DNA of 64,000 nt from Thermoanaerobaculia bacterium. GTDB lineage: Bacteria > Acidobacteriota > Thermoanaerobaculia > Multivoradales > UBA5704. The position numbers were made by a program, and so were the translations under genes. The stretch covers positions 1 to 64,000 of the forward strand of contig JBGAGQ010000024.1 in assembly GCA_044226625.1 (NCBI GenBank), in the 5' to 3' direction. This document shows positions 5,440 through 56,508 of the stretch, piece after piece. Position 1 is the first letter of the stretch. The number at the start of each line of letters is the position of its first letter. A model generated the notes under the pieces. The model was not told the DNA's origin. It worked only from the letters and a program-made list of their open reading frames with translations, and ran no database searches.

Positions 5440-7865
5440 ATGACTCTCGCGACCCGCTCCGCCGCCCGCACGCTCGCCTCGGCCCTGGTCTTCCTCGCGT
5501 CCGCCGCCGCCGTTCCTGCCGCGTTCGCCGGGGAAGCGCGCCTGCCTACCGGTTTACGGCTCGATCCGGCGGGAACCCTGGCCGACCTGGGGAACTTTCC
5601 GGTCAACGCGATCGTCGACTCGAGCGGCGAGCGCCTGTTCGTCCTTCTGAGCGGCTGGCGAGAACAGGGTGTGCAGGTGGTCGATCGCCGCACGGGCGCC
5701 GTGCTCCAGACCCTCCCCCAGAAAGCGGCGTTTCTCGGCTTGGCGCTCGCGGCGGACGGCAAGACCCTCTACGCCTCGGGAGGAGACGAGGACCACGTCG
5801 CCCGCTACGCCCTGGACGGCGGGGAGGCCCGGCCGCTTCCGCCGTTCGTCCTGGCGGAAAAGCCTGAGGGTAAGGAGGCGACCCGTTACCCGGCGGGGCT
5901 CGCCCTGTCCCACGACGGCAAGAGGCTCTACGTAGCGGAGAATCTCTCCGACACGGTGGCGGTGCTCGATGCGAGCACCGGAGCGGTCCTGGAGCGGGTT
6001 GCCGCCGGGCTCTATCCCTACGCGATCGCGGTGGCGCCGGACGGCGCGCTCTACGTCTCCAACTGGGGAGGAGACGGGGTCTCGGTCTACCGCCCGGGCA
6101 AGGGGGCAAGCTCCGGAGCGTCGGGGCGATCGTGGTCGGCCGGCATCCCTCGGCGCTTCTCTTGAACCGAAGCGCGGACCGACTTTTCGTCGCCTCGGCG
6201 AGCACCGACCGGGTTGCGGTGGTCGACACGGCGCGCCGGAAGGTGATCGCGACGCTTCTCGATCCGCCCCCGGCCGGTCCGCACGAGGGCTCGACCCCGA
6301 ACGCCCTCGCGCTGTCCGCGGACGGCCGGCGGCTGTTCGTCGCCGAGGCCGACGCGAACGCCGTCGCGGTCTTCGATCTCTCGCCGCGGACGGCGGGCGC
6401 TCCTGGGAGCGCGAAAGGAAGGAAGGCCAAGAGGTCCGTCGACCGGCTGGCCGGTCGCATCCCGGTCGGCTGGTATCCGACCGCGGTGCTCGCCGACCGC
6501 GGCGAGCTCCTGGTGATCGACGGCAAGGGGCGGGGTACCGGGCCGAACCCCGGCATGCCTCAACCTTTGGGCAAGCTGGCGAAGGACTCCCACGACTACT
6601 CGCTCGGCCAACTCCACGGCGCACTTTCCACCCTCTCCGAGGCGGCGCTTTCCGATCTGCCTGCGCTCTCCGGGCGGGTGGCGCGCGCAAATGGCTGGGA
6701 CCTGCCGCGGACCCCGGGGTCCTATCCGCCGTTTCGCCATGTGATCTACGTCGTCAAGGAGAACCGGACCTACGACCAGGTGTTCGGTGATCTGCCCCAA
6801 GGAGACGGCGACCCGTCGCTCCTCTTCTTCCCGCGCGAGGTGTCGCCCAACCACCATGCGCTCGCCGAGCGGTTCGGCCTGTTCGACCGCTTCTTCGTCA
6901 ACGCCGAGGTGAGCGCGCAGGGGCACCCCTGGTCGACCGCCGCCTACGTCACCGATTTCACCGAAAAGACGGTCTCCTCTTTCTATTCCGATCGACGGCC
7001 TGGCCGGCAAGAAGACGGAGATGAGGAGGATTCCGCGAGCGGCTACCTCTGGACCTTGGCGCTCGCCAAGGGCCTGAGCCTGCGGGTCTTCGGCGAGTAC
7101 GCCGAACCGGTCGCGGGGTCGAACCCGGTCGTCTACCGCTCGTCCAAGGCGGCCCTGCGGCCGTACACCAGCCCCGACTACCCGGCGTTCGACATGAAGA
7201 TCCCGGACCAGAAGCGGCTGGAGGTCTGGTTGAAGGAATTCAACGGATTCGTCGCGGCGGGAAAGATGCCCGCGCTCCAGATCCTCCACCTGCCGAGCGA
7301 CCACACCTCCGGCGCCCGGCCGGGCCAGATGACGCCGCGAGCCCACATGGCGGACAACGACCTCGCCCTCGGGCGGATCGTCGAAGCGTTGTCGAGCAGC
7401 CCGTTCTGGCGCGACACGGTGATCTTCGCGCTCGAAGACGACGCCCAGGCGGGGCCCGACCACGTCGATTCGCACCGGAGCGTGATGCTCGCGATCTCGG
7501 CTTACAACCGAGGGGGCGTCGATCACCGGTTCGTCAACACGACCGACGTTCTCGCGACCATCGAAGAGATCCTCCACCTCGGCAACCTCTCTCAGTTCGA
7601 TCATTTCGGCCGGCCCCTGCGGGAGATCTTCGGAACCCAGGCGGATCTTTCCCCGTACCGACCGCTCGTGCCTCCGGTGCCGCTCGACGAGCTGAACCCC
7701 GATTCGGGATCCGCGGCGCAGGCCTCGGCGCGGCTCCGGCTGGACGTCCCGGACGCCTCGAACGACGACCTGTTCAACCGCATCCTTTGGGCCGCAATCC
7801 GCGGCGACGAGCCCTACCCCGAGCCGAAGCGGGTTTCGACGAAGGAACTGACGCTGGCCAATTGA
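5440..7865 (+). pseudogene. Secreted YVTN/YncE beta-propeller plus phosphoesterase (alkaline-phosphatase fold) protein, split by a single-base frameshift (real or sequencing error)
   Basis: ORF 5440..6165 has a signal peptide and propeller blades. ORF 6132..7865 continues the blades, then HVIYVVKENRTYDQVFGD and EDDAQAGPDHVDSHRS. One extra G in the G5 run at 6102-6106 joins the two frames. Confidence 0.8.
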
Positions 7866-10376: not shown

Positions 10377-10507
10377 AATTCAAAAACATGGATTCGAAAA
10401 AACTATCGTTTTCTCGGACCCCCCTGCTGTAGGGTCCTCTTCGCGGGAAAAAGCAGTCCGCCACCCCTTCCCCGACCAGCGTTTCCAGGCTCCTCGGCTC
10501 CTCCGTT

Positions 10508-10768
10508 TCAAATCCAGTCCATTTCCTGGCCTCCGAATTCGAATTCGGGAGCCGCGAAATTCATTTCGGGGCCGGCGATTTCCATCCTCCGGTTCGCGAA
10601 ATCCATTTCGGCCGCTCCGAATCTCATTTCGGGACCGGCGTAGTCCATCTCTTGAGTCGCGAATTCGAATTCGGGAGTCCCGAACTCCACTTCCTCCCTC
10701 CCGAATTGCCTTTCGGGATTGCCGAATTCGAATTCGCGGGGCGTTCGCAGCTCATCCGTCGGATTCAT
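10508..10768 (-). CDS. Possible 86-aa heptad-repeat peptide (E-[MF]-x-F-[GA]-x-P); may be a by-product of the DNA array
   Basis: Open frame across the array with F/Y/W/I at one heptad position; no clear RBS. Confidence 0.3.
   Translation of the reverse strand: MNPTDELRTPREFEFGNPERQFGREEVEFGTPEFEFATQEMDYAGPEMRFGAAEMDFANRRMEIAGPEMNFAAPEFEFGGQEMDWI
10514..10744. repeat. Degenerate tandem array, 11 x 21 bp, quasi-palindromic core CGAAWTnnATTTCG
   Basis: Units start at 10514, 10535, 10556, 10577, 10598, 10619, 10640, 10661, 10682, 10703 and 10724, e.g. gaattcgaattcgggagccgc, gaaattcatttcggggccggc, gaaatccatttcggccgctcc. Confidence 0.9.
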
Positions 10769-10809
10769 CGGGCCGCATTTCGCGGCCCGTTTTTCAAAAG
10801 GAGAAGGAC

Positions 10810-11175
10810 GTGTCCAGAGACGCCAGCTTCGCCAGCCGTATCAGCCAGTGTGACGTCGCGGTGCAGAATCTTCAGGAGCTCGCCCCGAACATCCCGGGCG
10901 GCGAGACGCATCTCGCCGAGATCCGGCAACAGGTCGACGCCCTCCGAGCTTCTCAGGAGAGCATCCAAATGCTGCGCGCCAAGCTCACCGACCTGGTGAT
11001 CCTGCGCCAGCAGCAGAACAAGAAAGCGGGGGCGGCTTTCCGCCTGCTCGCGGCGGCCGCCGGCGCGCACTTCGGATTCGCCAACCCGATCCTCGAAAGC
11101 TTCAACGTCCGCTCCGAGCATCGGGCCAAGCGTGGCCGCAAGAAGAAGGAGGTAAAGCCGCTGCCCGAGAACTGA
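10810..11175 (+). CDS. Small helical protein of unknown function with basic tail; paralog of 54659..55063
   Basis: AAGGAG RBS before GTG; amphipathic helices; LAAA..HFG...P.L..F.V motif; RAKRGRKKK tail. Confidence 0.85.
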   Translation: MSRDASFASRISQCDVAVQNLQELAPNIPGGETHLAEIRQQVDALRASQESIQMLRAKLTDLVILRQQQNKKAGAAFRLLAAAAGAHFGFANPILESFNVRSEHRAKRGRKKKEVKPLPEN

Positions 11176-11458: not shown

Positions 11459-11857
11459 ATGTCCCGGTACTCTCTCAGTCTCCCGAACGATCTCAAGCAA
11501 GACGCCGAGCGGCTCGCGGACGAGCAGGGCGTTTCCTTGAATCAGTTCATCCTTTGGGCCGTGGCCGAGAAAGTGGGTGGCCTATCCCAAGGGTTGAACG
11601 ACCCGGGCTTTCCGCAGATTACATACCGGAAGGGAGCTTCGGGATCACCGATCGCCACCCTTCGCGGGTCGGGGGTGCGGGTTCGCACGATTTGGGCCGC
11701 GAGCACTGCCTGGAGCTGGTCACCCGAACAAATCGCCCGCGAGTACGGTCTGCGGATCGATCAGGTGGAGGAGGCGCTTTCGTTCGCGGCCGCCCACCAG
11801 GCGGAGATCGAGGCGGACCTGGAGCGGGAGGAGAAGCTCGCGAGGGCGAGTGCCTAA
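11459..11857 (+). CDS. Putative antitoxin: ribbon-helix-helix-like N-terminus plus DUF433 domain
   Basis: AGGAGG RBS; SLSLPNDLK..GVSLNQFI; P..LRGSGVRV..SPEQIAREYGL..DQVEEALSF. Confidence 0.8.
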   Translation: MSRYSLSLPNDLKQDAERLADEQGVSLNQFILWAVAEKVGGLSQGLNDPGFPQITYRKGASGSPIATLRGSGVRVRTIWAASTAWSWSPEQIAREYGLRIDQVEEALSFAAAHQAEIEADLEREEKLARASA

Positions 11858-12194
11858 ACTGCGCCTGCACCTCGACGCCGACACCTCCAACCGAGCGATC
11901 GAAAAGGCGTTGGCCGAGAAGGGCCACGACGTAACCCGAACCCCGGCCCCGTGGATACCCTTCGATGCGGACGACGAAACGCAGCTTCTTCGAGCGACGG
12001 CTCGCGGCCGGTGCATCTTCACCTTCAACGTCCGAGACTTCGTCGTCCTTTCCGAGCGCCATCCGCAGCACGCGGGCATAGTCCTCGCCGCTCAGCGTAG
12101 CTGGACGTTGTCGGAGCTGATCGCAGCCCTCGATCTCCTGCTGACCGAATCCCCGGAGATGCGAGGAAGGGTGGAATGGCTGAGACGAGGGTAG
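11850..12194 (+). CDS. DUF5615 PIN-like putative toxin
   Basis: LRLHLDAD, GHDV, DDETQL..A...GRCIFTFNVRDF, HAGIVL; overlaps the DUF433 gene. Confidence 0.82.
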   Translation: MPKLRLHLDADTSNRAIEKALAEKGHDVTRTPAPWIPFDADDETQLLRATARGRCIFTFNVRDFVVLSERHPQHAGIVLAAQRSWTLSELIAALDLLLTESPEMRGRVEWLRRG

Positions 12195-23565: not shown

Positions 23566-26500
23566 ATGACCGCCAAGAGATTTCCCCAGCTCCTCGCGTT
23601 CGCGGTGGCGAGCCTGTTTGCTCTCCGACCGGCGGCGGCAGTGACGTCCACGTTCAAGATCTATATCGACGCGGGCAACGACAACGCGGCGACCAGCTGT
23701 ACCGATCCCTCCGTACCTTTCCGTTTCGACGAGGTGCTGACCACGACGGTCGACACGAGCGGAGCGGCATCGGCCTCCGTCACCGCGGTCGCCCACCAGT
23801 CGTGTCTCTCCGGCACGCTCGATCCCACGCCGCACGCGGTGCCCGGGCCGCCCACGCCGCCCTGGAACGTCGGCATCGGCAACGGCGACAACGCGACCAA
23901 CGTCATCGAAACGTTCTTCAAGTTCACCGGCGCCGCCCCCACCTCCGTACGGTTCGCGCTGGTCGCGACCGGCGCGAGCGGCGGGCTGGACATCGTCACG
24001 ACCACCGCTTCGGGAAGCCCGACGCCGATCGTGCTGGTGCTCGGTCCGGTCATCGACATCCCCACCCTGGGCGGCTGGGGCCTCGCCCTCCTCGGATTGC
24101 TCCTCGCGCTCGCGGCCGGAAAGACGCTGCGTCGGCGCGGCGCGCGGGTCGCGCTCGCGATCCTGTTCCTCTCGTCTGCGGGCGCGCTTTGGGCGGTTTG
24201 TCTTTTCGACGGCCTGACCAACGACTGGTCGGTCGGCCAGCGGGTCGCGCAGGACAACGCCGGAGATTCAGCGGGTGGTCCCGACGTGCGCTCGTTCTAC
24301 GCCAAGTTCGAGAACGGAAGCCTCTGCTTCCGAATCGACAGCTCGCTCATCTTCAACGATCCGCCGACCGCCGATGACCAGGCCCCCTCGACCGCCGAGG
24401 ACACGGCCCTGCCGTTGACCTTGACGGGAAGCGATCCGAACGGCGACCCGCTCACCTTCTCGATCGTCTCCGGCCCCGCCCATGGCACTCTCGGCCCGTT
24501 GTCCGGCGCGACCGCGACGAGCGTGAACGTCTCTTACACACCGGCCGCCGATTTCAACGGTTCCGACAGCTTCGTGTTCCAGGTCGCCGATGGTCTGGGA
24601 GGGACCGACCAGGGAACGGTGTCGATCACGGTCACCCCGGTCGACGACACTCCGATCGCGGTCAACGACGCGGCGACGGTCGCCGAGGACTCGGGCGCCA
24701 CGGCGGTCCCTGTCCTGGCCAACGACACGGACGTCGACGCCGGACCGATCGGCATCGCGTCGGTGACGCAGCCGGCGAACGGCACCGTGGTCATAACGGG
24801 CGGCGGCACGGGTCTGACCTACGCGCCGAACGCGAACTACTGCAATCAGCCTCCCGGCACGACGCTCGACACCTTTACCTACACCTTGACGCCGGGTAGC
24901 TCGTCAGCGACGGTGACGATGACGGTGACCTGCGTCGACGACGCGCCGGTCGCGGTGGCCGACGCGGCGACCGTCGCCGAGGACTCCGGCGCAAGCGCGG
25001 TCGACGTGCTCACGAACGACACAGACATCGACGCGGGTCCGAAGACCGTCGCCTCGGTGACGCAGCCTACGAACGGCTCGGTGGTGATCACCGGCGGCGG
25101 TACGGGTCTTACCTACGCCCCGAACGCGAACTACTGCAACCAGCCGCCGGGTACGACGCTCGACACCTTTACTTACACCTTGGCGCCTGGCGGGTCCTCC
25201 GCAACAGTCACGATGACGGTGACCTGCGTGGACGACGCACCGGTCGCGGTGGCCGACGCGGCGACCGTCGCCGAGGACTCGGGCGCCACCGCGGTCTCCG
25301 TCCTCGCCAACGACACGGACGTCGACGCGGGTCCCATCAGCATTGCGTCGGTAACGCAGCCTGCGAACGGCGCGGTGGTGATCACGGGCGGCGGAACGGG
25401 GCTGACTTACGCGCCGAACGCGAACTACTGCAACCAGCCGCCGGGCACGACGCTCGACACCTTCACCTACACCCTGACGCCCGGCAGCTCTTCGACGACG
25501 GTGACGATGACCGTGACCTGCGTCGACGACAACCCCGTCGCGGTTGCGGACGCAGCGACGGTGCTCGAGGATTCGGGCGCGAACGCGATCGCCGTGTTGG
25601 CGAACGACACCGACATCGACGCGGGCCCGAAGAGCGTCGCCTCGGTGACTCAGCCGGTCAACGGCGCGGTGGTGATCACGGGCGGCGGCACGGGCCTCAC
25701 TTACGCGCCGAGCGCGAACTACTGCAACAACCCGCCCGGGACGACGCTCGACACCTTCACCTATACCCTGGCACCGGGCGGTAGCTCGACGACGGTGACG
25801 ATGACCGTGACGTGCGTGGACGACGCTCCCGTCGCCGTAGCGGACGCCGCGACGGTGAACGAAGACTCCGGCGCCAATGCGATCAACGTCCTGGCCAACG
25901 ATCCGGACCTCGACGGCGGACCCAAGGTGGTGGGCTCGGTCACGCAGCCGGCCAACGGTGCGGTCGTGATCACGGGCGGCGGCACGGGCCTCACCTATGC
26001 GCCGAACGCCGACTACTGCAACCAGCCGCCGGGCACGACGCTGGACACCTTCACTTACACCTTGAGCCCCGGGGGATCGTCGGCCACCGTCACGGTGACC
26101 GTGAGCTGTCTGAACGACGCTCCGGCCGTGGACCTGGACGCGAACGACGACCAGGGGACCACGGGCTCCGATTTTGCGGCCACCTACACCGAAGGCACCG
26201 CCGCGACGCTCATCGAGGATCCGACCGACGCGACGGTGACCGACATCGACAACACCACGTTGGCTTCGATGACGGTGACCCTCACGAACCTTCTCGACAC
26301 CGGTTTCGAGACGCTCTCGACGGATACGACGGGGACCTCGATCGTCGCCGTCTATACGCTCGCTCCCGGCACCGGAACTCTCACGCTGACGGGGCCCGAC
26401 ACGATCGCCAACTTCCGAACCGTGCTCCGCAAGGTGCGGTATCTAAACACCGACATCGACCCTGATGCCTCGGCCCCGCGGGTCGTCAACTTCGTCGCGA

Positions 26501-29500
26501 ACGACGGCGCCGTCAACAGCAACACGGCGGTCTCGACGGTCACTGTGGTCGCGGTGGACTCGCCGCCCACGGCGGTGGCCGACGCCGCGACGGTAACCGA
26601 AGATTCGGGCGCGAACGCGGTGAACGTGTTGGCGAACGACACGGATCCCGACAATGGGCCGAAGAGCGTCGCCTCGGTGACGCAGCCGGCGAACGGCACG
26701 GTGGTCATCACGGGCGGCGGAACGGGGCTGACTTACGCGCCGAACGCGAACTATTGCAACCAGCCGCCGGGCACGACGCTCGACACCTTCACCTACACCC
26801 TGACGCCTGGCAGCTCTTCGACTACGGTGACCATGACGGTGACCTGCGCCGACGACAATCCGGTCGCGGTGGCCGACGCGGCGACCGTGAACGAGGACTC
26901 GGGCGCGAACGCGGTGAACGTTCTTGCGAACGACACCGACCCTGACGGCGGTCCGAAGAGCGTCGCGTCGGTGACGCAGCCGGCGAACGGCGCGGTGGTG
27001 ATCACGGGCGGCGGCACGGGACTGACCTACGCCCCGAACGCGAACTACTGCAACCAACCGCCGGGCACGACGCTCGACACCTTCACCTATACGCTTTCGC
27101 CGGGCGGCAGCTCGACGACGGTGACGATGACGGTCACTTGCGTCGACGACAACCCGGTGGCGGTGGCCGACGCGGCGACCGTGGTCGAGGACTCGGGCGC
27201 GAACGCGGTCAACGTGTTGGCCAACGACACGGACGTCGACGGCGGTCCGAAGAGCCTGGCGTCGGTGACGCAGCCAGCGAACGGTACGGTGGTGATCACG
27301 GGCGGCGGCACGGGCCTCACCTACGCTCCGAACGCGAACTACTGCAACCAGCCGCCGGGCACGACGCTCGACACCTTCACCTATACGCTCACGCCGGGTG
27401 GCAGCACGACGACGGTGACGATGACGGTCACCTGCGTCGACGACGATCCGGTGGCGGTGGCCGATGCGGCAACCGTGAACGAAGACTCGGGCGCCAACGC
27501 GGTCAACGTGCTGGCGAACGACACCGACATCGACGGCGGTCCGAAGAGCGTCGCGTCGGTGACGCAGCCGGCGAACGGCACCGTGGTGATCACGGGCGGC
27601 GGTACGGGTCTGACCTACGCCCCGAACGCGAACTACTGCAACCAACCGCCGGGCACGACGCTCGACACCTTCACCTACACGCTCACGCCGGGCGGCAGCT
27701 CGACGACGGTGACGATGACGGTCACCTGCGTCGACGACAACCCCGTCGCGGTGGCCGACGCGGCGACTGTGGTCGAGGACTCGGGCGCCAACGCGGTGAA
27801 CGTTCTGGCGAACGACACGGACGTCGACGGCGGCCCGAAGAGCGTCGCGTCGGTGACGCAGCCGGCGAACGGCACGGTGGTGATCACGGGCGGCGGCACG
27901 GGGCTGACCTATTCCCCGAACGCGAACTATTGCAACCAACCGCCGGGCACGACGCTCGACACCTTCACCTATACCCTCACGCCGGGCAGCAGCTCGACGA
28001 CGGTGACGATGACGGTCACCTGCGTCGATGACGATCCGGTGGCGGTGGCCGACGCGGCGACCGTGGTCGAGGACTCGGGCGCCAACGCGGTGAACGTATT
28101 GGCGAACGACACGGACGTCGACGCCGGCCCGAAGAGCGTCACCTCGGTAACGCAGCCGGCGAACGGCACCGTGGTGATCACGGGCGGCGGCACGGGTCTG
28201 ACCTACGCGCCGAATCCGAACTACTGCAACAACCCGCCAGGCACGACGCTCGACACCTTTACCTACGCGCTCACGCCGGGTGGCTCGTCCACCACGGTGA
28301 CGATGACCGTTACCTGTGTCGACGATCCTCCGGTCGCGGTCGCCGACTCCGCCACCGTGATCGAGGACTCGGGGGCCAATGCGATCAACGTGCTGGCGAA
28401 CGACACCGACATCGACGGAGGCCCGAAGAGCGTCGCCTCGGTGACGCAGCCCGCCAACGGTGTGGTGGTGATCACGGGCGGCGGAACGGGCCTGACCTAC
28501 GCGCCGAACGCGAACTACTGCAACAACCCGCCGGGTACGACGCTCAGCACCTTCACGTACACCCTGACGCCGGGAGGCTCGTCGACCACGGTGACGATCA
28601 CCGTAACCTGCGTCAACGATCCTCCCGTCGCCGGGGCCGATGCGGCCGACTTCATCGGCAACACGGAGCTTCGGGTGGATACCGGTGCGGTCGCGACCCC
28701 GCACGTGCTCAAGACCACGTCGAGCACGTTCGGCGTCCTCGACAACGACAGCGACCCGGTCGAGGGCGACGCGGTGGCGGTTTCCTCGATCACGGTCGGG
28801 GCCTGCACCGACAATTCCTCGCCGTTCGATTGCACCGACGCGGCCGTGGGCACGGTCCACATGCAGACGAACGGCCGCTTCAGCTTCGAGCCGGCGCCGG
28901 GCGACACCGGCGCAACGGAGTCCTTCACCTATGTGGTGACCGACAACGGCTCGCCCGCTCCGGCGAGCGCGACCGGCACGGTGACCCTGACTCGCTTCAA
29001 TCGCGTCTGGTACGTGAAGAACGATCAGGCTGCCGGTGGTCTCGGCCGGTCGGCCGATCCGTTCGACACCTTGCTCGAGGCACAGACCAACTCGGTCGCG
29101 GGCGACACGATCTACGTCTACAACGGCGACGGTACGACCACCGGCCAGGCGAACGGCATCGTCCTCAAGGCGACCCAGCGCTTGATCGGTGAGGGTGTGC
29201 AGCTCGCCGTGCCGGTCACCGTCAATGGAGGACCGAATCCGACCGTGCTGCGTGCCGCGGGCACAGCTCCGATGGTCGACGATGTCGACGCGGGCGGGAA
29301 CGCGGTCGGAGCGACCGACGTGATCCCCACCGAGATCGCCGGGTTGAACCTGGCGGGCAACACGAACGGAATCGACATCACTCACACTGGGGCTTTCGCC
29401 GGTTCGGGATCGCTGGAGATTCGCAACAACGTGATCCGCTCCGCCGGTGTCGAGGGAATCGATCTCAACAAGGGCGGCACCGGGGCGCTCACCCTCTCCC

Positions 29501-31758
29501 TGCATGACAACACGGTGACCGCGACGAGCAACGGCATCGACGTCCTCCGTAGCAACGGGGGCCTCACCATCACCGCGTTCGCCAACAACGTCGTGACGGG
29601 AAACACCGGAGGCTCGGGAATCGTCGTCACCGGTCCGATGTCGTTCGACTCGAATACCGCGAACGCCGTCAACGACCTGGTCTCGGGTGGCACGACCGTC
29701 ATCGGCGCTTCGGGCAACGGCGTCGGGGCGAGCGGGATGGTTCTAACCAACGTCGACGGCAACTTGGAATTCACCGACCTGGACGTCTTCAACGACGCCG
29801 GTACCGGCCTCTCCGTCACCGGATCCGGCGCGTTGACCGCCTCGACCGGCACGCGGATCGCCGTTTCCGCCGGGGTTTCTACCCTCGACTCCAGCGGTGG
29901 CCCCGCGGTCTCCATCAACAACGCCACGACGAGCCTGCCGATCAACTTCTACCGGTCGCAGAACTCCCCGACGACCGGCCTGAGCTTGGTCAATGCCTTC
30001 GGCGGCGTGGGTTCCACCGCGTTCTCCGCGAGCACCGGACAGATTTCGGATCCGGTCGGTGCGTCGGGAACCGCGGTCAACGTCAGCGGCGGCAACGGCA
30101 ACGTCACGATCGGGATCCCGGTGACGAACACCTCCGGCAACTCGGTCGTCGTGACCAACCGCTCGAGCGACACGGTCAGCTTCACCGGAACGGTGAGCGA
30201 CAACGGCGGCTCCGGTATCTCGCTGACCACCAATACCGGGGCGACGATCGGCTTCTCCGGCGCGATCACGGCGAGCACCGGCGCCAACCCGGCGTTCACC
30301 GCGACCGGGGGCGGAACGGTAACGGCCACGGACACGACCAGCACGCTCACGACCACGACCGCGACCGCGCTGAACGTCGCCAACACGATGATCGGCGCCG
30401 GCGGTCTCAGGTTCCGGTCGATCACGGCCGGAACCGCGGGGAGCGGCCCGGCGAACGGCATCGTGCTCAATACGACGGGAGCGAGCGGCGGGCTCACGGT
30501 CTCCGGAACCGGCGGCGCCGGAACCGGCGGCACGATCCAGAAGACGACCGGACCGGGCGTGCTGTTGATGTCCACCCAGAACGTCAGCCTGAGCTCTCTC
30601 AACGTGATCAACGGTACCGACGACGGAATTCACGGCGAATCGGTAACCAACCTCGACCTGATCGGCTGCAGCATCACCGGCAACGGAAACTCCACCACCG
30701 ACGACGGCATCCAGTTGGGTCTCGAGAGCGGAGCGACCACCGGTGTCTCCGGTACCTTGAACCTGACGAACACCACCGTCAGCTCCTCGGCCCACAACAA
30801 CGTGCATATCCGCAACACGCTCGGTACGTTGACGATGAACGTGACGGGGGGAGCTTTCAACAACATCAGCGACACGACCGGCGCCAACTCGTTCCTCTAC
30901 GAGGCCTCCGGCACGTCGACCACCACGGCGGCGACGATCAGCGGCGCGACCTTCAGCACGAACTCGCCGCAGCGAGGTCTCGAGGTCCAGGCGCACGACA
31001 CGGCGACGATCACCGACTTCACGGTGTCGGGTAACACCTTCACCGATAACGGCATCCACGCGAGCTTCACGCAGGACACGAGCGCCAACCTCACGTTCAA
31101 GATGCTCAACAACTTGAACATGTTGACGGCGACGCCGCTCCACGCGATCAACGTCTTCTCCTCTTCGACGTCGACCGGCGGAACGATCCGCGGCCGGATC
31201 CAGGGCAACACCATCGGGAACGGCGCGGTTTCCGGGTCCGGTTCGTCGTCGGGCAACGGAGTCCGCGTCCTGATCCAAGGTCGCACCGCCGCCACGCTGC
31301 TGATCGACGGCAACGTGATTCGACAGACGCCGGGCGGCCGGGCCGTGGACATGCAGTTCCTCGGCTCGACGACCACGGGTCTGGGTATCGTCTCGACGAA
31401 CGACGTGACGATCACCAACAACGACGTTCAGAACAACGCGCCGGCGGCCTCTTTCCCGCTCGCGGCGATCTTCCTCGCTTCCGACAACCAGGGAAGCCCG
31501 GCCCGTGTCCGTGCCGACATCCGCACGAACACCGTGCCGGCAACGGTCGGACCCAACGGCTCGTTCGACTATCCGACCTTCGACGGCAACGCGGCCTGGT
31601 TCGTCTACGAGGAGCTCGGAGGGGCGACGTCCGAGCTCGTGGACAACGCGCCCGCCAGCGGAACCGCCACAGCCGAGATGCAAAGCCACAACACCGGAAC
31701 CATGTATGCCAACTCGGGGGTGGCCCTGATCGCAGGACCGATCACCACGCCGCCGTAG
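23566..31758 (+). CDS. 2730-aa secreted surface protein: signal peptide, internal IPTL-CTERM-like motif, Ig/cadherin-like tandem repeats, C-terminal beta-helix-like region
   Basis: Uninterrupted ORF; ND.PVA..D..T..ED Ig repeats; G/T/N/S-rich parallel beta-helix-type C-terminal ~900 aa. Confidence 0.9.
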   Translation: MTAKRFPQLLAFAVASLFALRPAAAVTSTFKIYIDAGNDNAATSCTDPSVPFRFDEVLTTTVDTSGAASASVTAVAHQSCLSGTLDPTPHAVPGPPTPPWNVGIGNGDNATNVIETFFKFTGAAPTSVRFALVATGASGGLDIVTTTASGSPTPIVLVLGPVIDIPTLGGWGLALLGLLLALAAGKTLRRRGARVALAILFLSSAGALWAVCLFDGLTNDWSVGQRVAQDNAGDSAGGPDVRSFYAKFENGSLCFRIDSSLIFNDPPTADDQAPSTAEDTALPLTLTGSDPNGDPLTFSIVSGPAHGTLGPLSGATATSVNVSYTPAADFNGSDSFVFQVADGLGGTDQGTVSITVTPVDDTPIAVNDAATVAEDSGATAVPVLANDTDVDAGPIGIASVTQPANGTVVITGGGTGLTYAPNANYCNQPPGTTLDTFTYTLTPGSSSATVTMTVTCVDDAPVAVADAATVAEDSGASAVDVLTNDTDIDAGPKTVASVTQPTNGSVVITGGGTGLTYAPNANYCNQPPGTTLDTFTYTLAPGGSSATVTMTVTCVDDAPVAVADAATVAEDSGATAVSVLANDTDVDAGPISIASVTQPANGAVVITGGGTGLTYAPNANYCNQPPGTTLDTFTYTLTPGSSSTTVTMTVTCVDDNPVAVADAATVLEDSGANAIAVLANDTDIDAGPKSVASVTQPVNGAVVITGGGTGLTYAPSANYCNNPPGTTLDTFTYTLAPGGSSTTVTMTVTCVDDAPVAVADAATVNEDSGANAINVLANDPDLDGGPKVVGSVTQPANGAVVITGGGTGLTYAPNADYCNQPPGTTLDTFTYTLSPGGSSATVTVTVSCLNDAPAVDLDANDDQGTTGSDFAATYTEGTAATLIEDPTDATVTDIDNTTLASMTVTLTNLLDTGFETLSTDTTGTSIVAVYTLAPGTGTLTLTGPDTIANFRTVLRKVRYLNTDIDPDASAPRVVNFVANDGAVNSNTAVSTVTVVAVDSPPTAVADAATVTEDSGANAVNVLANDTDPDNGPKSVASVTQPANGTVVITGGGTGLTYAPNANYCNQPPGTTLDTFTYTLTPGSSSTTVTMTVTCADDNPVAVADAATVNEDSGANAVNVLANDTDPDGGPKSVASVTQPANGAVVITGGGTGLTYAPNANYCNQPPGTTLDTFTYTLSPGGSSTTVTMTVTCVDDNPVAVADAATVVEDSGANAVNVLANDTDVDGGPKSLASVTQPANGTVVITGGGTGLTYAPNANYCNQPPGTTLDTFTYTLTPGGSTTTVTMTVTCVDDDPVAVADAATVNEDSGANAVNVLANDTDIDGGPKSVASVTQPANGTVVITGGGTGLTYAPNANYCNQPPGTTLDTFTYTLTPGGSSTTVTMTVTCVDDNPVAVADAATVVEDSGANAVNVLANDTDVDGGPKSVASVTQPANGTVVITGGGTGLTYSPNANYCNQPPGTTLDTFTYTLTPGSSSTTVTMTVTCVDDDPVAVADAATVVEDSGANAVNVLANDTDVDAGPKSVTSVTQPANGTVVITGGGTGLTYAPNPNYCNNPPGTTLDTFTYALTPGGSSTTVTMTVTCVDDPPVAVADSATVIEDSGANAINVLANDTDIDGGPKSVASVTQPANGVVVITGGGTGLTYAPNANYCNNPPGTTLSTFTYTLTPGGSSTTVTITVTCVNDPPVAGADAADFIGNTELRVDTGAVATPHVLKTTSSTFGVLDNDSDPVEGDAVAVSSITVGACTDNSSPFDCTDAAVGTVHMQTNGRFSFEPAPGDTGATESFTYVVTDNGSPAPASATGTVTLTRFNRVWYVKNDQAAGGLGRSADPFDTLLEAQTNSVAGDTIYVYNGDGTTTGQANGIVLKATQRLIGEGVQLAVPVTVNGGPNPTVLRAAGTAPMVDDVDAGGNAVGATDVIPTEIAGLNLAGNTNGIDITHTGAFAGSGSLEIRNNVIRSAGVEGIDLNKGGTGALTLSLHDNTVTATSNGIDVLRSNGGLTITAFANNVVTGNTGGSGIVVTGPMSFDSNTANAVNDLVSGGTTVIGASGNGVGASGMVLTNVDGNLEFTDLDVFNDAGTGLSVTGSGALTASTGTRIAVSAGVSTLDSSGGPAVSINNATTSLPINFYRSQNSPTTGLSLVNAFGGVGSTAFSASTGQISDPVGASGTAVNVSGGNGNVTIGIPVTNTSGNSVVVTNRSSDTVSFTGTVSDNGGSGISLTTNTGATIGFSGAITASTGANPAFTATGGGTVTATDTTSTLTTTTATALNVANTMIGAGGLRFRSITAGTAGSGPANGIVLNTTGASGGLTVSGTGGAGTGGTIQKTTGPGVLLMSTQNVSLSSLNVINGTDDGIHGESVTNLDLIGCSITGNGNSTTDDGIQLGLESGATTGVSGTLNLTNTTVSSSAHNNVHIRNTLGTLTMNVTGGAFNNISDTTGANSFLYEASGTSTTTAATISGATFSTNSPQRGLEVQAHDTATITDFTVSGNTFTDNGIHASFTQDTSANLTFKMLNNLNMLTATPLHAINVFSSSTSTGGTIRGRIQGNTIGNGAVSGSGSSSGNGVRVLIQGRTAATLLIDGNVIRQTPGGRAVDMQFLGSTTTGLGIVSTNDVTITNNDVQNNAPAASFPLAAIFLASDNQGSPARVRADIRTNTVPATVGPNGSFDYPTFDGNAAWFVYEELGGATSELVDNAPASGTATAEMQSHNTGTMYANSGVALIAGPITTPP
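24643..28614 (+). repeat. Twelve 294-bp (98-aa) intragenic repeats in blocks of 5 (24643-26112) and 7 (26557-28614)
   Basis: Exact 294-nt period; consensus DD.PVAVADAATV.EDSGANAVNVLANDTD...YCNQPPGTTLDTFTYTLTPG.SSTTVTMTVTCV. Confidence 0.95.
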
Positions 31759-53432: not shown

Positions 53433-53598
53433 GGGTGGCACCGCGGACGGCCTAGCCTATCGCGGCGGGGGGAGACCTCGGGCGTCGGTTTCGAGCACGA
53501 ACTGCAGGCGTTCGAAACTCGCCTCACTCCCCGGGCGTACTGCCTGAGCAGACCTTTTCCCGTTCGCCTCGCGCAAGAGGCAGGAAACAGGCGCACCC

Positions 53599-54519
53599 AT
53601 GAAATCGATCGCCATCTACTCGTCCGAGCCCCCGAGGGGCTGGCTTCCCTGGGGAGCTTTCGCGCCGTTCCTTTGTATCTTGCTCGTCGCGGTGCCCACC
53701 CTCTTGGTCTCCCTCGTGCTGGAGCGTTTTCACCTGGAGGACGCGAAGGGTGACCCCCTGGGTCTGTCGGGCCTGTTCGCGGTACTGATCTTTCACTTTG
53801 TCGCGATGGGCCTGGTCCTCTTTGCCTGGGTTTTGCTGGTCGAGCGGCGCCCCCTTGCGACCCTCGGTCTGAGGGGGCCACGCAAGGCCAAGAGGTTTCT
53901 CCTCGGCCAGGGGATCGGAATGGCCACCGTCACTTCGGTTGTCGTCGCGATCTGGGCGGCAGGCGGTCTCGAAGCGAGAGGGTTCGGTCCTGCCTTGAGC
54001 TCACCGGGTGCGCTCTTGAACATTGGCCTCTTGTTGATCTGCTTCGCCGTGCAATCGAGCGTCGAGGAAATCATCTTCCGCGGTTGGCTGCTTTCCGCGG
54101 TAGCCGTCAAGTTCAACGTACCGATCGCCGTCGTGCTCACCTCGTTCGCTTTCGCCTTCTTGCACTACAGCCCCCACCAACCTGTTCTGATCATCATGAG
54201 CTCTCTCCTCTTCTCCGCGTTCACCTGTTGCTGGGCGCTCAAGAGCCGATCCATCTGGGGGGTCATGGGCTGGCATACCGGGTGGAACTGGCTCTTGGCG
54301 ACGGGCTTCGAGCTACCGGTCACCGGCATCGACGCGAAGCAGCCCGCGCTGCTCGTTCGAATGGTCGTCCGAGGCCCGGACCCTCTTACGGGCGGCGCGC
54401 AAGGCCCGGAGGGGAGCTACCTGTGCAGTGTCTTTTTCATCGGAGCGTGCGCGTTCCTCCTCTGGCGCATCTGGCGCGATCGCGAGACGGGCGGGACGCG
54501 AGCGGGGTCGGCTGGGTGA
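53599..54519 (+). CDS. CPBP/Abi (CAAX-like) intramembrane metalloprotease
   Basis: EEIIFRG, FAFLH, HTGWN motifs. Confidence 0.9.
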   Translation: MKSIAIYSSEPPRGWLPWGAFAPFLCILLVAVPTLLVSLVLERFHLEDAKGDPLGLSGLFAVLIFHFVAMGLVLFAWVLLVERRPLATLGLRGPRKAKRFLLGQGIGMATVTSVVVAIWAAGGLEARGFGPALSSPGALLNIGLLLICFAVQSSVEEIIFRGWLLSAVAVKFNVPIAVVLTSFAFAFLHYSPHQPVLIIMSSLLFSAFTCCWALKSRSIWGVMGWHTGWNWLLATGFELPVTGIDAKQPALLVRMVVRGPDPLTGGAQGPEGSYLCSVFFIGACAFLLWRIWRDRETGGTRAGSAG

Positions 54520-54598
54520 TCTCTTCGTCGAGGCACGGAATCTGGAGGATCGGCTTCAGGGGTACGCAGGGCTCGAATCCGACGCCTGGCCTATCGCG
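54497..54598 (-). pseudogene. Decayed duplicate of the GT2 5' end and upstream region
   Basis: 54497-54563 matches 53370-53436 ungapped at 54/67 by hand count. It translates LKPILQIPCLDEE versus [13 protein letters not shown], with ATG changed to CTG. Confidence 0.8.
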
Positions 54599-54658
54599 CA
54601 GCGGTCGGAACAACGCCGGGAGCGTGGAGCGCTCCACCCCCGGCGCGGGCCGATCTGG

Positions 54659-55063
54659 CTAGCTGGTCGAGGCCTTCGCGATCGAGTCGACCTGAGGCGC
54701 CGCCTCGAGCGCCTGCTTCGCCGCTTTCGACGGTCGGGTACGTCGAATCTCTTCGGCCCGAGGTTTCACCCCGAAGCGGATCAGCTCCGGGCTCTCCAGC
54801 CCGAAATGGCTCTGGAGCGCCGCGGCGAGGACGTTGCGCAGCTTCCGACCCCGCTTCACGAGCGCCTGGCGCTGCATCGCTAGGTCTCGAATGCCGGAGC
54901 GTTGCACCTCCACCCGCTCGATCAGGAGTCTCATCTCCTCCACCAACGCTTTGAACTGGGCATGGGCCTCCCCGGCGTGCGCCACGTCGCCGAGGATCGG
55001 CTCCATGTTCATCGCGAGGACGCCCCAGGTCTGCCGCATGTCCGCAAACGAGCTGACTTTCAT
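54659..55063 (-). CDS. Small helical protein of unknown function; paralog of 10810..11175
   Basis: AAGGGAG RBS; SFA.., LAAALQSHFGLESPELIRFGV motif; basic tail. Confidence 0.85.
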   Translation of the reverse strand: MKVSSFADMRQTWGVLAMNMEPILGDVAHAGEAHAQFKALVEEMRLLIERVEVQRSGIRDLAMQRQALVKRGRKLRNVLAAALQSHFGLESPELIRFGVKPRAEEIRRTRPSKAAKQALEAAPQVDSIAKASTS

Positions 55064-55167
55064 GATGACTGCTCCCTTCTGGGCGAAGAATCGCCCGAGA
55101 GTCCACCGGCAGCGTGCCGGAGGACGAATCCACGGTGGACTCACAGGGAGAGGGAAAGCGGGCGCGA

Positions 55168-55368
55168 CGAGACGGTCTCGGGGGCTCGCGAGACGGATCC
55201 ACGGTCTCGTGAGACCGATCCACGATTCGGAATCTCGGTCCGCGGGTTTGCGAGACCGTTCCACGCTTCGTGAGACCGATCTATCGGTTCGCGAGACCGT
55301 CTCACGTTGCCGGAGAGCGACTCACGATCGTTGAGACCGATTCACGGCGGCGGGAGAGCGATTCACGC
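55168..55368. repeat. Degenerate tandem array, about 10 units of 20-21 bp, core GAGACCGATYCACG
   Basis: GAGAC/GAGAG cores at 55169, 55190, 55211, (degenerate ~55231), 55252, 55272, 55293, 55313, 55333 and 55354. Confidence 0.88.
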
Positions 55369-55671
55369 CCCGGGCCGTCGATGAGCTAGAGAAGGTGGGT
55401 TCCGATAGCCGCTATCTGCGAAACACGATAGCGGCTGTCGCGACTCAACTTCGACTCTTCCCGGAGCACCCTAACGGTCGGTGCTCCCTGTGAGCTTCAA
55501 AGAACCGGTGCTGCGATGAGGAGTCTTTCTCATCCATATGTGGCCTGTCAAGGTCATTTAAGTTGCATTTCGACAACATCGGCCGTGTTCTCTCATTCCG
55601 TCCGAGTCGCGGGCGCGTCGCGTAGACTTTCGCCCGGGTCGGCCGAAGTCGACGCCCGAGGAGGAGATACG

Positions 55672-56469
55672 ATGGATTCGACCGACCGAACGTGGGAGCA
55701 CGCCGACGCCTACGAGGCCTTCATGGGGCGCTGGAGTCGGCCTCTCGCTCGAGAGTTCCTGAAGTGGCTCGATCCGGCGCCTACGGCCCATTGGCTGGAA
55801 GTGGGGTGCGGCACCGGCGCTCTCACCACGGCGATCTGCGAGCTGGGCGAACCGGCGTCGGTGGTCGGGTCGGACCCTTCGGGCTCTTTCCTCGAAGCGG
55901 CGCGGCGGGCGCTCCCGGACCCTCGCGCGACGTTCGTCGAGGCTCCCGCCGAGCACCTCCCGACGCGGCCGGAGGGGTTCGACCGCGTGGTCTCCGGCCT
56001 GGTGCTCAATTTCCTCCCCGACCCGGCGCGCGTCGCCTCGGATGTCCGGCAACGGTTACGAGACGGGGGGATCTTCGCCGCCTATGTGTGGGATTACTCC
56101 GGAGGCATGGAGTTTCTCCGCGCCTTCTGGGAGGAAGCGGTCGCCGAGGACCCGGAGGCCGCGGCACGCGCCGAGAACCTCGGCTTCTCGCTCTGCCACC
56201 CTTCCGCCCTGACCGCACTGCTCGAGAACGCCGGATTTTCCGACGCGCAGACCGGCGCGCTGGAGATTCCGACCGTCTTCTCCAGCTTCGACGACTATTG
56301 GCAGCCCTTTCTGCTGGGAACCGGCACGGGTCCCAGCTTCGTCGCCTCCCTCGCCCCGGACCACCGCGAGCGCCTGAGGGCCCGTCTCGAACTTCGTCTT
56401 ACGCCGAGCCCCGGAGAGTCGATCGAGCTCAAGGCGCGCGCCTGGGCGGTGCGGGGCTCGGCGAGCTGA
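55672..56469 (+). CDS. Class I SAM-dependent methyltransferase
   Basis: GAGGAG RBS; YEAFMGRWS, LEVGCGTG, SGLVLNF, AYVWD. Confidence 0.92.
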   Translation: MDSTDRTWEHADAYEAFMGRWSRPLAREFLKWLDPAPTAHWLEVGCGTGALTTAICELGEPASVVGSDPSGSFLEAARRALPDPRATFVEAPAEHLPTRPEGFDRVVSGLVLNFLPDPARVASDVRQRLRDGGIFAAYVWDYSGGMEFLRAFWEEAVAEDPEAAARAENLGFSLCHPSALTALLENAGFSDAQTGALEIPTVFSSFDDYWQPFLLGTGTGPSFVASLAPDHRERLRARLELRLTPSPGESIELKARAWAVRGSAS

Positions 56470-56508
56470 GGCCTGTTTTTCTGCGCTTCAGGAGGGACGG
56501 ATCGAGGC

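Follow-up and report, generated by a model that had tools for sequence, protein, structure and literature searches.

Clade-matched 20-22-bp tandem arrays upstream of genes for small helical proteins in a lineage of Thermoanaerobaculia

A lineage-wide and undescribed protein-repeat system was identified, in which most genes for a small unannotated protein follow tandem arrays of 20-22-bp units whose sequence changes together with the protein clade, while further arrays are dispersed over the chromosome. Arrays of this class have been described before, though not explained; what is new is the cognate protein family, together with the dispersed arrays that match its clades.

Two modules in the window

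The window, a stretch of 64,000 nucleotides (positions 1 to 64,000 of contig JBGAGQ010000024.1), holds two modules on opposite strands:

10399..10435, forward strand: promoter-like cassette, a 19-nt motif with dyad followed by a TAnnnT hexamer at a fixed distance, directed into the array
10514..10744, forward strand: copy-1 array, 11 units of 21 bp, each with a dyad core GAAWT-NN-AWTTC and a variable linker
10769..10794, forward strand: terminator/attenuator-like hairpin (8-bp stem, 5-nt loop, T5), immediately 5' of the ribosome-binding site
10810..11175, forward strand: 121-aa gene; predicted helix, 58-residue helix, short helix and basic disordered tail; predicted antiparallel coiled-coil dimer
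54659..55063, reverse strand: 134-aa paralogue (copy 2), related to copy 1 by BLASTP, HMM and ungapped identity count
55081..55096, reverse strand: copy-2 hairpin, immediately 5' of the ribosome-binding site (folding z -4.0)
55173..55371, reverse strand: copy-2 array, about 10 units at mixed distances of 20/21 bp (~20.5 on average), with a palindromic core unlike that of copy 1

An earlier note on this DNA had described 11 exact 21-bp units ending about 65 nt before a 121-aa gene at 10810, and this layout was confirmed. The units keep an exact 21-bp phase over approximately 10514-10744, and 65 nt separate the end of the array from the GTG start of the ORF. The self-match of the array was 0.52, 0.55 and 0.60 at lags of 21, 42 and 63, respectively, and 0.14-0.36 at the remaining lags; across the 64-kb window the lag-21 self-match averaged 0.31 (sd 0.046). 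The window has just three peaks at lag 21 that exceed 0.47, namely copy 1, copy 2 and a third one near 30216-30433. In cores of the copy-1 type, the letters G4, A5, A6, T8, A11, T13 and T14 are kept at 90-100% and the mirror positions 7 and 12 vary, which makes the conserved part a symmetric dyad around a 2-bp centre. In a hairpin, the inner pair that is kept best would have to close a loop of 2 nt; this core therefore fits a dyad in DNA and not a hairpin. A heptad-repeat peptide, encoded by an 86-aa ORF on the reverse strand of copy 1 (10508-10768) and without a Pfam match, was considered and rejected because copy 2 and many relatives have periods of 20 or 20.3 bp.

The second module was likewise found on the other strand, with a 134-aa ORF at 55063-54659 and an array at about 55173-55371. 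Self-match peaks of this array were located at lags 20, 21, 41 and 61, and the intervals between its 10 cores are 21, 20, 20, 21, 20, 22, 19, 21 and 21 bp; the resulting mean of ~20.5 bp rules out a coding repeat there. The arrays had been described as alike in period, copy number and dyad symmetry but not in sequence. Their cores do differ, but copy 2, with about 10 units of mixed spacing, is not an exact 21-mer array. The hand count of 26 ungapped identities between the two proteins at an offset of one residue proved exact over the first 100 positions, versus 9 and 10 identities at offsets 0 and 2, and BLASTP gave an E value of 2e-10. The assignment of both modules to accessory islets is too simple for copy 1, where the order clc-marR-array-gene is conserved in 4/7 congeneric genomes. 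Copy 2 was found at its site in one of the four congeners whose site was compared.

Some observations concern the surroundings of the modules. The genes at 11459-12194, one RHH/HicB-like with DUF433 and one DUF5615 (PIN-like), are a likely toxin-antitoxin pair, which is missing from the copy-1 site in some congeners. In assembled contigs of one RNA run, a contig covered the neighbouring toxin-antitoxin gene and none covered the copy-1 module, which speaks neither for nor against the module. The region 53500-56500 around copy 2 is a rearrangement hotspot when compared with congener loci L199-L202, and all four congeners carry a different 21-bp-type array near it.

Distribution of the protein family

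The earlier note had seen two modules. The source genome actually holds 19 paralogues of the 120-145-aa protein, as found by iterated HMM search, and about 100 arrays. The family profile matched 1190 clusters at 50% identity, 419 of them at E <= 1e-10; among the matches listed, almost all family clusters were of 108-192 aa. Within the taxonomic family of the source genome, the protein was present in 36/40 other genomes (4-48 matches per genome) and absent from genus g10 (0/4 genomes); it was also absent from 54 genomes of 11 sister families (0/54). One relative with 61% identity is labelled Thermoanaerobaculia and another one Acidobacteriota, which would place the source genome there. In a phylum-wide sample, 5 of 150 other genomes gave marginal matches (E 3e-5 to 8e-4, 28 candidates scored in each), which were not accepted.

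None of the libraries searched names the protein. Searches of Pfam, PHROGs, NCBIfam and PADLOC returned only scattered weak matches, with at most 3 members per family and nothing near the cut-off in NCBIfam; the 121-aa protein of copy 1 matched nothing in Pfam or PHROGs. DUF6261 (PF19775) reached an Atlas score of 0.76, which is a lead only, and no member matched it among the families listed. Longer fused forms were absent from the 8000 scored, a weak test, and one query of phage and plasmid collections gave no family match.

Linkage of gene and array

Matches were taken from four congeners (27/27, 30/39, 30/42 and 30/35), and a further sample took the best match each from a fifth congener and from 24 genomes outside the genus. 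Only full-length matches were kept in the linkage set, which comprised 150 genes, 140 of them with 600 nt of upstream sequence. A 20-22-bp array was found within these 600 nt at 95/140 family genes, compared with 15/1458 random control genes. This enrichment of ~70-fold holds across genera (own genome 14/19, congeners 71/99, other genera 10/22), and arrays downstream of family genes were rare (3/145). No array was present within 600 nt at 45/140 genes, nor within 1400 nt at 37.

Array similarity was found to follow the protein clade. It exceeded 0.12 in 24/24 gene pairs with 90-100% protein identity, in 59% of the 68 pairs at 80-90% and in 34% of the 29 pairs at 70-80%, and it was 0.00 in every bin below 60%. 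As exceptions, 14 pairs more than 70% identical in protein had an array similarity of 0.04 or less. The period is mostly typical of the clade, and non-integer values (20.3, 21.3) exclude coding repeats. Eight of the 12 largest array families showed a dyad correlation of at least 0.75, and 3/12 were weakly or not palindromic.

The copy-1 site offers a direct comparison. In four congeners it is occupied by a sister-clade gene (~65% identical) with its own array type, the clc-marR order being retained, while copy-1 orthologues (82-91% identical) are located elsewhere in congeners together with an array of the copy-1 type. The presence of sister gene with sister array, or of copy-1 gene with copy-1 array, at the same site indicates that both were replaced together. 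These results bear out the proposal that array and protein are a co-diverging unit. In the three respects in which contrary evidence had been anticipated, arrays proved common upstream of family genes and rare at control genes, and the match between the two proteins was significant. Physical linkage alone also predicts co-divergence, so the data show a unit and not recognition.

Orphan arrays

Most arrays of the source genome lie away from any family gene. A scan of the genome gave 134 calls, from which 23 located within genes and 10 that were short or of low complexity were removed; with gene calls from a purpose-built codon model, the 101 kept (one counted twice and one possibly coding) were divided into 13 gene-linked arrays and 88 orphans. 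Fifteen array families have at least two members in this genome. A gene-linked array is resembled by 55/88 orphans, for 46 of them one in the source genome itself, and at a cut-off of 0.10 the other 33 match none; these include two families of 8 and 7 members, with one array counted twice in the latter. One 5-member orphan family matches a protein clade not found in the source genome, and the copy-2 array has one orphan of the same type elsewhere in it. Intergenic arrays of the source genome had periods of 20 (29), 21 (49), 40 (22) and 42 (45); every other value from 8 to 44 was represented by 3 arrays or fewer. The array period is constrained while the sequence is free.

Orphans favour convergent gaps (38/76 versus 152/870, p 9e-10) and avoid divergent ones (6/76 versus 293/870, p 5e-7). 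Sampling of genus g10, which is devoid of the protein, yielded 2 atypical arrays in 660 kb, compared with 11 from 400 kb of two genomes that have the protein and a density of 17 per Mb in the source genome; since the g10 data come from two genomes of one genus, ~4% sampled, this contrast counts as one evolutionary comparison.

Individual orphan sites are lineage-specific, and array families are common to congeneric species. At one orphan site the gap measures ~430-450 nt here versus 72, 92 and 219 nt in three congeners, in which the site is empty, and the array consists of nearly perfect repeats. A second site is a rearrangement breakpoint, and the matching array is absent in five congeners. 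Orphans of one family have common leader and tail sequences; inspection of orphan family 1 and of one empty site revealed neither terminal inverted repeats nor target duplications, the relatives being only ~80% identical. In genome G027, one orphan is an array fused to the last codons of a family gene by an internal deletion. Such an origin is not general in the source genome, where the 3' flank of the family gene was detected in 7/88 orphans, mostly as short matches, and no convincing gene remnants were found beside orphans. The copy-1 core profile was the same in 29 units of 3 gene-linked arrays and in 141 units of 13 orphan arrays of relatives. As orphan units keep this core as well as gene-linked units do, the orphans are either of recent origin or subject to selection.

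Orphan families 3 and 4 comprise ~14 arrays of period 20 with a non- or weakly palindromic core and long common flanks (for example C20:29218, C58:124700, C58:267891). A cognate gene was not found for either of them, and for family 3 the ORFs listed around 4 matching loci of 3 congeners included none. A mobiliser of the RAYT type was rejected as a candidate, the source genome giving one weak Y1 transposase match only. The source genome also contains a REP-like hairpin with 119 matches counted on both strands, which, the element being palindromic, probably correspond to ~60 sites; 16 are near arrays.

Predicted structure and proposed mechanism

AlphaFold2 (145 sequences) predicted helices at residues 7-22, 31-88 and 93-98 and no strand, with pLDDT 90.6 and pTM 0.63. 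A two-copy model gave a dimer score of 0.67 versus 0.00 for the best control, with runs agreeing in at least 96% of contacts at pLDDT of at least 77; the mark for this score was reached by 20/30 solved pairs and 1/23 single chains, and coiled coils can pass it through likeness to solved structures. The contacts 52-62/63/66, 45-69/70/73 and 38-76/77 define a predicted antiparallel coiled coil centred near residue 57. Conserved Arg/Lys residues at 10, 46, 56, 66, 77, 79, 85, 101, 103 and 107-110 are distributed near this centre, at both heads and in the tail, and the median net charge is +6. Foldseek gave no match in the PDB at E <= 0.001, a wide VIA fold search gave generic helical hairpins only (best Z 6.9), and a PDB profile search gave coiled-coil noise only. 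No DNA-binding fold was thus recognisable in the model by these searches, although fold searches without an informative match do not establish the fold as new. An AT-hook tail was rejected: RGR is enriched (17/145 tails versus 4.2 in shuffled ones), yet too rare to be general.

With moderate confidence, we infer that each paralogue is a sequence-selective, DNA-binding architectural protein that polymerises on its own phased array. The array would serve as a phased landing strip for the cognate paralogue. In the predicted dimer, a helical head and a basic tail would stand at each end of the antiparallel coiled coil. The heads would be ~60-85 A apart, or about two turns of DNA, a rough span calculated by hand from the contact pairs (twice the number of residues to position ~57, at 1.5 A each). 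One dimer could reach from the core of one unit to that of the next (20-22 bp, 68-75 A). Dimers would then align head to head along one face of the DNA helix. Because the head-to-head span brackets 20-22 bp, such an arrangement would explain a period that stays fixed while the sequence drifts by clade; against such a ruler, helix length is constant in the family across periods of 20-22. Also speaking against the reading are the family genes without an array, the orphans that match no gene-linked array, the close proteins with dissimilar arrays and the weakly or not palindromic array families. The gene-adjacent array might mediate autoregulation. Orphans, which are acquired by individual lineages and lie mostly where two genes end, would be extra sites acting as nucleoid anchors, as barriers to transcription or supercoils, or as tolerated sinks. 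The earlier note had offered two mechanisms, and binding of the protein to its own phased sites is the better supported, the binding itself being the step that we infer.

A Pterin_4a (PCD/DCoH)-like gene with an LKSERIQ motif and without the HHP motif is located upstream at 30/135 family loci. All 6 such genes of the source genome (C57, C46, C125, C13, C76, C109; loci L001, L003, L008, L009, L011, L016) are directly upstream of family genes. This non-catalytic-looking, pterin-dehydratase-like neighbour may be a partner of the family protein.

A tentative extension, towards which we remain rather sceptical, is a 'satellite code' in which tens of rod-shaped paralogues, each reading its own repeat family over two helical turns, coat ~100 arrays and organise or insulate the chromosome. 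If true, the proteins would form a class of programmable nucleoid proteins not described before, and bacterial 20-21-nt satellites would have their first identified readers. The main reading, if right, would add a DNA-binding architecture without HTH or RHH, reveal satellite-protein co-evolution in bacteria and supply a set of orthogonal protein-DNA pairs. The many naturally matched protein-array pairs permit direct comparison of cognate and non-cognate combinations.

Alternative explanations

The abundance of orphans, which outnumber gene-linked arrays ~6:1, raises the question of whether the arrays are self-spreading satellites or MITE-like repeats that hitch-hike with the gene, perhaps bound by another factor while the helical protein acts otherwise. 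Preference for convergent and avoidance of divergent gaps is what tolerated insertions would show; the orphan site that is empty in 3 congeners carries a nearly perfect array, and the leader and tail common to an orphan family recall BrickBuilt elements, as far as these are described in the part of the report drawn on here (PMC4596501). The other factor may be the PCD-like neighbour, given its position at 6/6 genes of the source genome, or a general nucleoid protein. We consider hitch-hiking unlikely, because it leaves unexplained the enrichment upstream of family genes across genera, the single array type per clade and the scarcity of arrays in genus g10; in addition, no terminal inverted repeats or target duplications were apparent in the single family and the single empty site inspected, and the PCD-like gene is present at only 30/135 loci. 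Very improbable, in our opinion, is a selfish cassette of gene and array, in which the protein would help its arrays to be copied or retained, for instance through targeted recombination or repair; equally improbable is the corollary that orphans are non-autonomous offspring of the cassette. The variable number of matches per genome (4-48), the patchy presence of clades, the unit swap at the syntenic copy-1 site, the G027 orphan with its gene 3' tail and internal deletion, and the frequent toxin-antitoxin and defence-like genes among the neighbours would agree with a cassette. Against it stand the lack of a catalytic domain and, in the weak test mentioned, of longer fused forms, the lack of matches in phage or plasmid collections, the few orphans with the gene 3' flank and the single weak Y1 transposase match in the source genome.

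The second mechanism of the earlier note, transcription of the array into a repeat RNA that binds, sponges or neutralises the protein in the manner of type III toxin-antitoxin systems, with orphans as extra RNA genes, found no support and is judged quite unlikely. Copy 1 alone shows the series of promoter-like site, array, hairpin with T5 and gene, a layout given as defining for type III loci in the portion of the literature cited here (PMC3401426). Other features point the same way: promoter motifs are directed into 10 arrays, 8 of them orphans, the copy-1 array folds with z -4.4, the arrays have mild strand skews (C>G in 62/93, T>A in 66/93), and the family protein is basic. However, the opposite strand of copy 1 folds just as stably (z -4.5). 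Mismatches of the G-T and A-C kinds were equally frequent in 25 palindromic arrays (208 versus 212), without a G-U bias, and within-unit pairing was 1698 versus 1642 +/- 15 in shuffled units, an excess of 3% with the axis chosen on the data; for copy 1 the values were 52 and 51.2. Real covariation was not observed for unit hairpins, and Rfam gave no match. Among 92 loci examined, the promoter motif was located between array and gene at 12, close orthologues of copy 1 included, upstream at 2 and absent at 78; with the motif mostly in that position, the array need not be part of the transcript. Furthermore, a third of the family genes have no adjacent array, and the all-helical model contains no nuclease fold.

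The highly conserved promoter-like cassette occurs in 31 copies in the source genome (at most 3 mismatches), and for 25 of these an array lies no more than ~310 nt away. It was not detected by a sigma-70 consensus scan, and its promoter function is therefore putative. Copies often form back-to-back divergent pairs, and many face no gene on the same strand. Leader hairpins of paralogues differ in their stems while the loop recurs, and a folding z below -2 was obtained for 40/148 family leaders compared with 11/144 control genes. The hairpin adjoining the ribosome-binding site looks like a real leader structure.

Comparison with known systems

In plasmid centromere and iteron arrays (ParR-parC, omega, iterons), many sites in helical phase are bound cooperatively by the product of an adjoining gene. 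The arrays described here resemble them as helically phased multi-site arrays beside a gene, for which binding would be analogous, but no ribbon-helix-helix or winged-helix fold was found in the family model. No partition NTPase (ParA/ParM) or Rep gene was present among 95 neighbouring proteins scanned, and no plasmid match was obtained for the family.

Constant-length, variable-sequence repeats of 20-21 nt have been described, yet are unexplained, in many bacterial genomes. The sections of the study of Subirana and Messeguer (2021) considered here report non-coding tandem arrays with a constant 20-21-nt unit, variable sequence and several families per genome, in Bacillus and other cultured bacteria (PMC8161180). 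The unit was related there to two helical turns, and a protein polymerising on DNA and needing a constant repeat size was proposed; those sections name no protein (PMC8161180). The arrays of the present family are likewise non-coding, with a constant unit length and several sequence families per genome, a likeness by description only, and differ in that the array type is tied to the clade of one protein family. Repeat families are species-specific in that account, as far as consulted, and common to congeneric species here. The family thus provides candidates for the polymerising protein proposed there without a candidate (PMC8161180).

KfrA of plasmid RA3 is, in the parts of the report used here, an alpha-helical, oligomerising protein of 355 aa with an N-terminal HTH and a long coiled-coil tail, and its operator consists of five 9-bp repeats over its own promoter and nowhere else on the plasmid (PMC7783346). 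Helical oligomerising proteins and repeats upstream of the own gene are common to both systems, with the oligomer predicted and the binding presumed in ours; the layout of array and gene would be compatible with repression of the own promoter. In contrast, the family protein is chromosomal, lacks an HTH in the model and has many paralogues, and its arrays have 10-25 units of 20-22 bp and dispersed copies. Pfam and NCBIfam searches gave no match of the family protein to KfrA or an HTH family.

The BrickBuilt minisatellite-MITE of Porphyromonas gingivalis forms dispersed intergenic 23-nt tandem arrays with leader and tail and with filled and empty sites; bidirectional promoter elements, terminal inverted repeats, target duplications, a single family and no cognate gene are given in the portion of that report cited here (PMC4596501). 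Dispersal between genes, leader and tail, filled and empty sites among relatives and bidirectional promoter-like elements are found in the present arrays too, but these fall into more than 12 families that correspond to gene clades, and terminal inverted repeats or target duplications were not seen in the family and the empty site inspected. Type III toxin-antitoxin systems (ToxIN, CptIN, TenpIN) combine promoter, tandem repeats, terminator and small gene, ToxI being a 36-nt pseudoknot repeat and the toxin an endoribonuclease according to the part of the source relied on (PMC3401426). They share the element order with copy 1 only, and differ from the present system by its 20-22-bp dyad units, its predicted coiled-coil rod protein and a layout not conserved across the family. 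None of 145 members matched a ToxN/CptN/TenpN-type Pfam family (25 of 27 families listed). In the literature searched, chiefly open-access main texts, no description of a pairing of helical protein and array was found.

Other observations

Two recurrent unannotated neighbours were noted downstream of family genes in congeners, namely a small XRE-like protein (14 loci) and a protein with the segment 'WEARFLGAGRWGV' (13 loci). A 41-aa fragment matching Cas6 (L013:4013-4135) lies between the array and the family gene at C1:26847. Elsewhere in the window, one gene at 5440-7865, which we take to be beta-propeller/phosphoesterase-like, is apparently split into two overlapping ORFs of 241 and 577 aa, possibly by a frameshift. 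The region 24640-28646 contains two arrays of 294-bp (98-aa) repeats, with 5 and 7 copies, which probably belong to a large surface protein.
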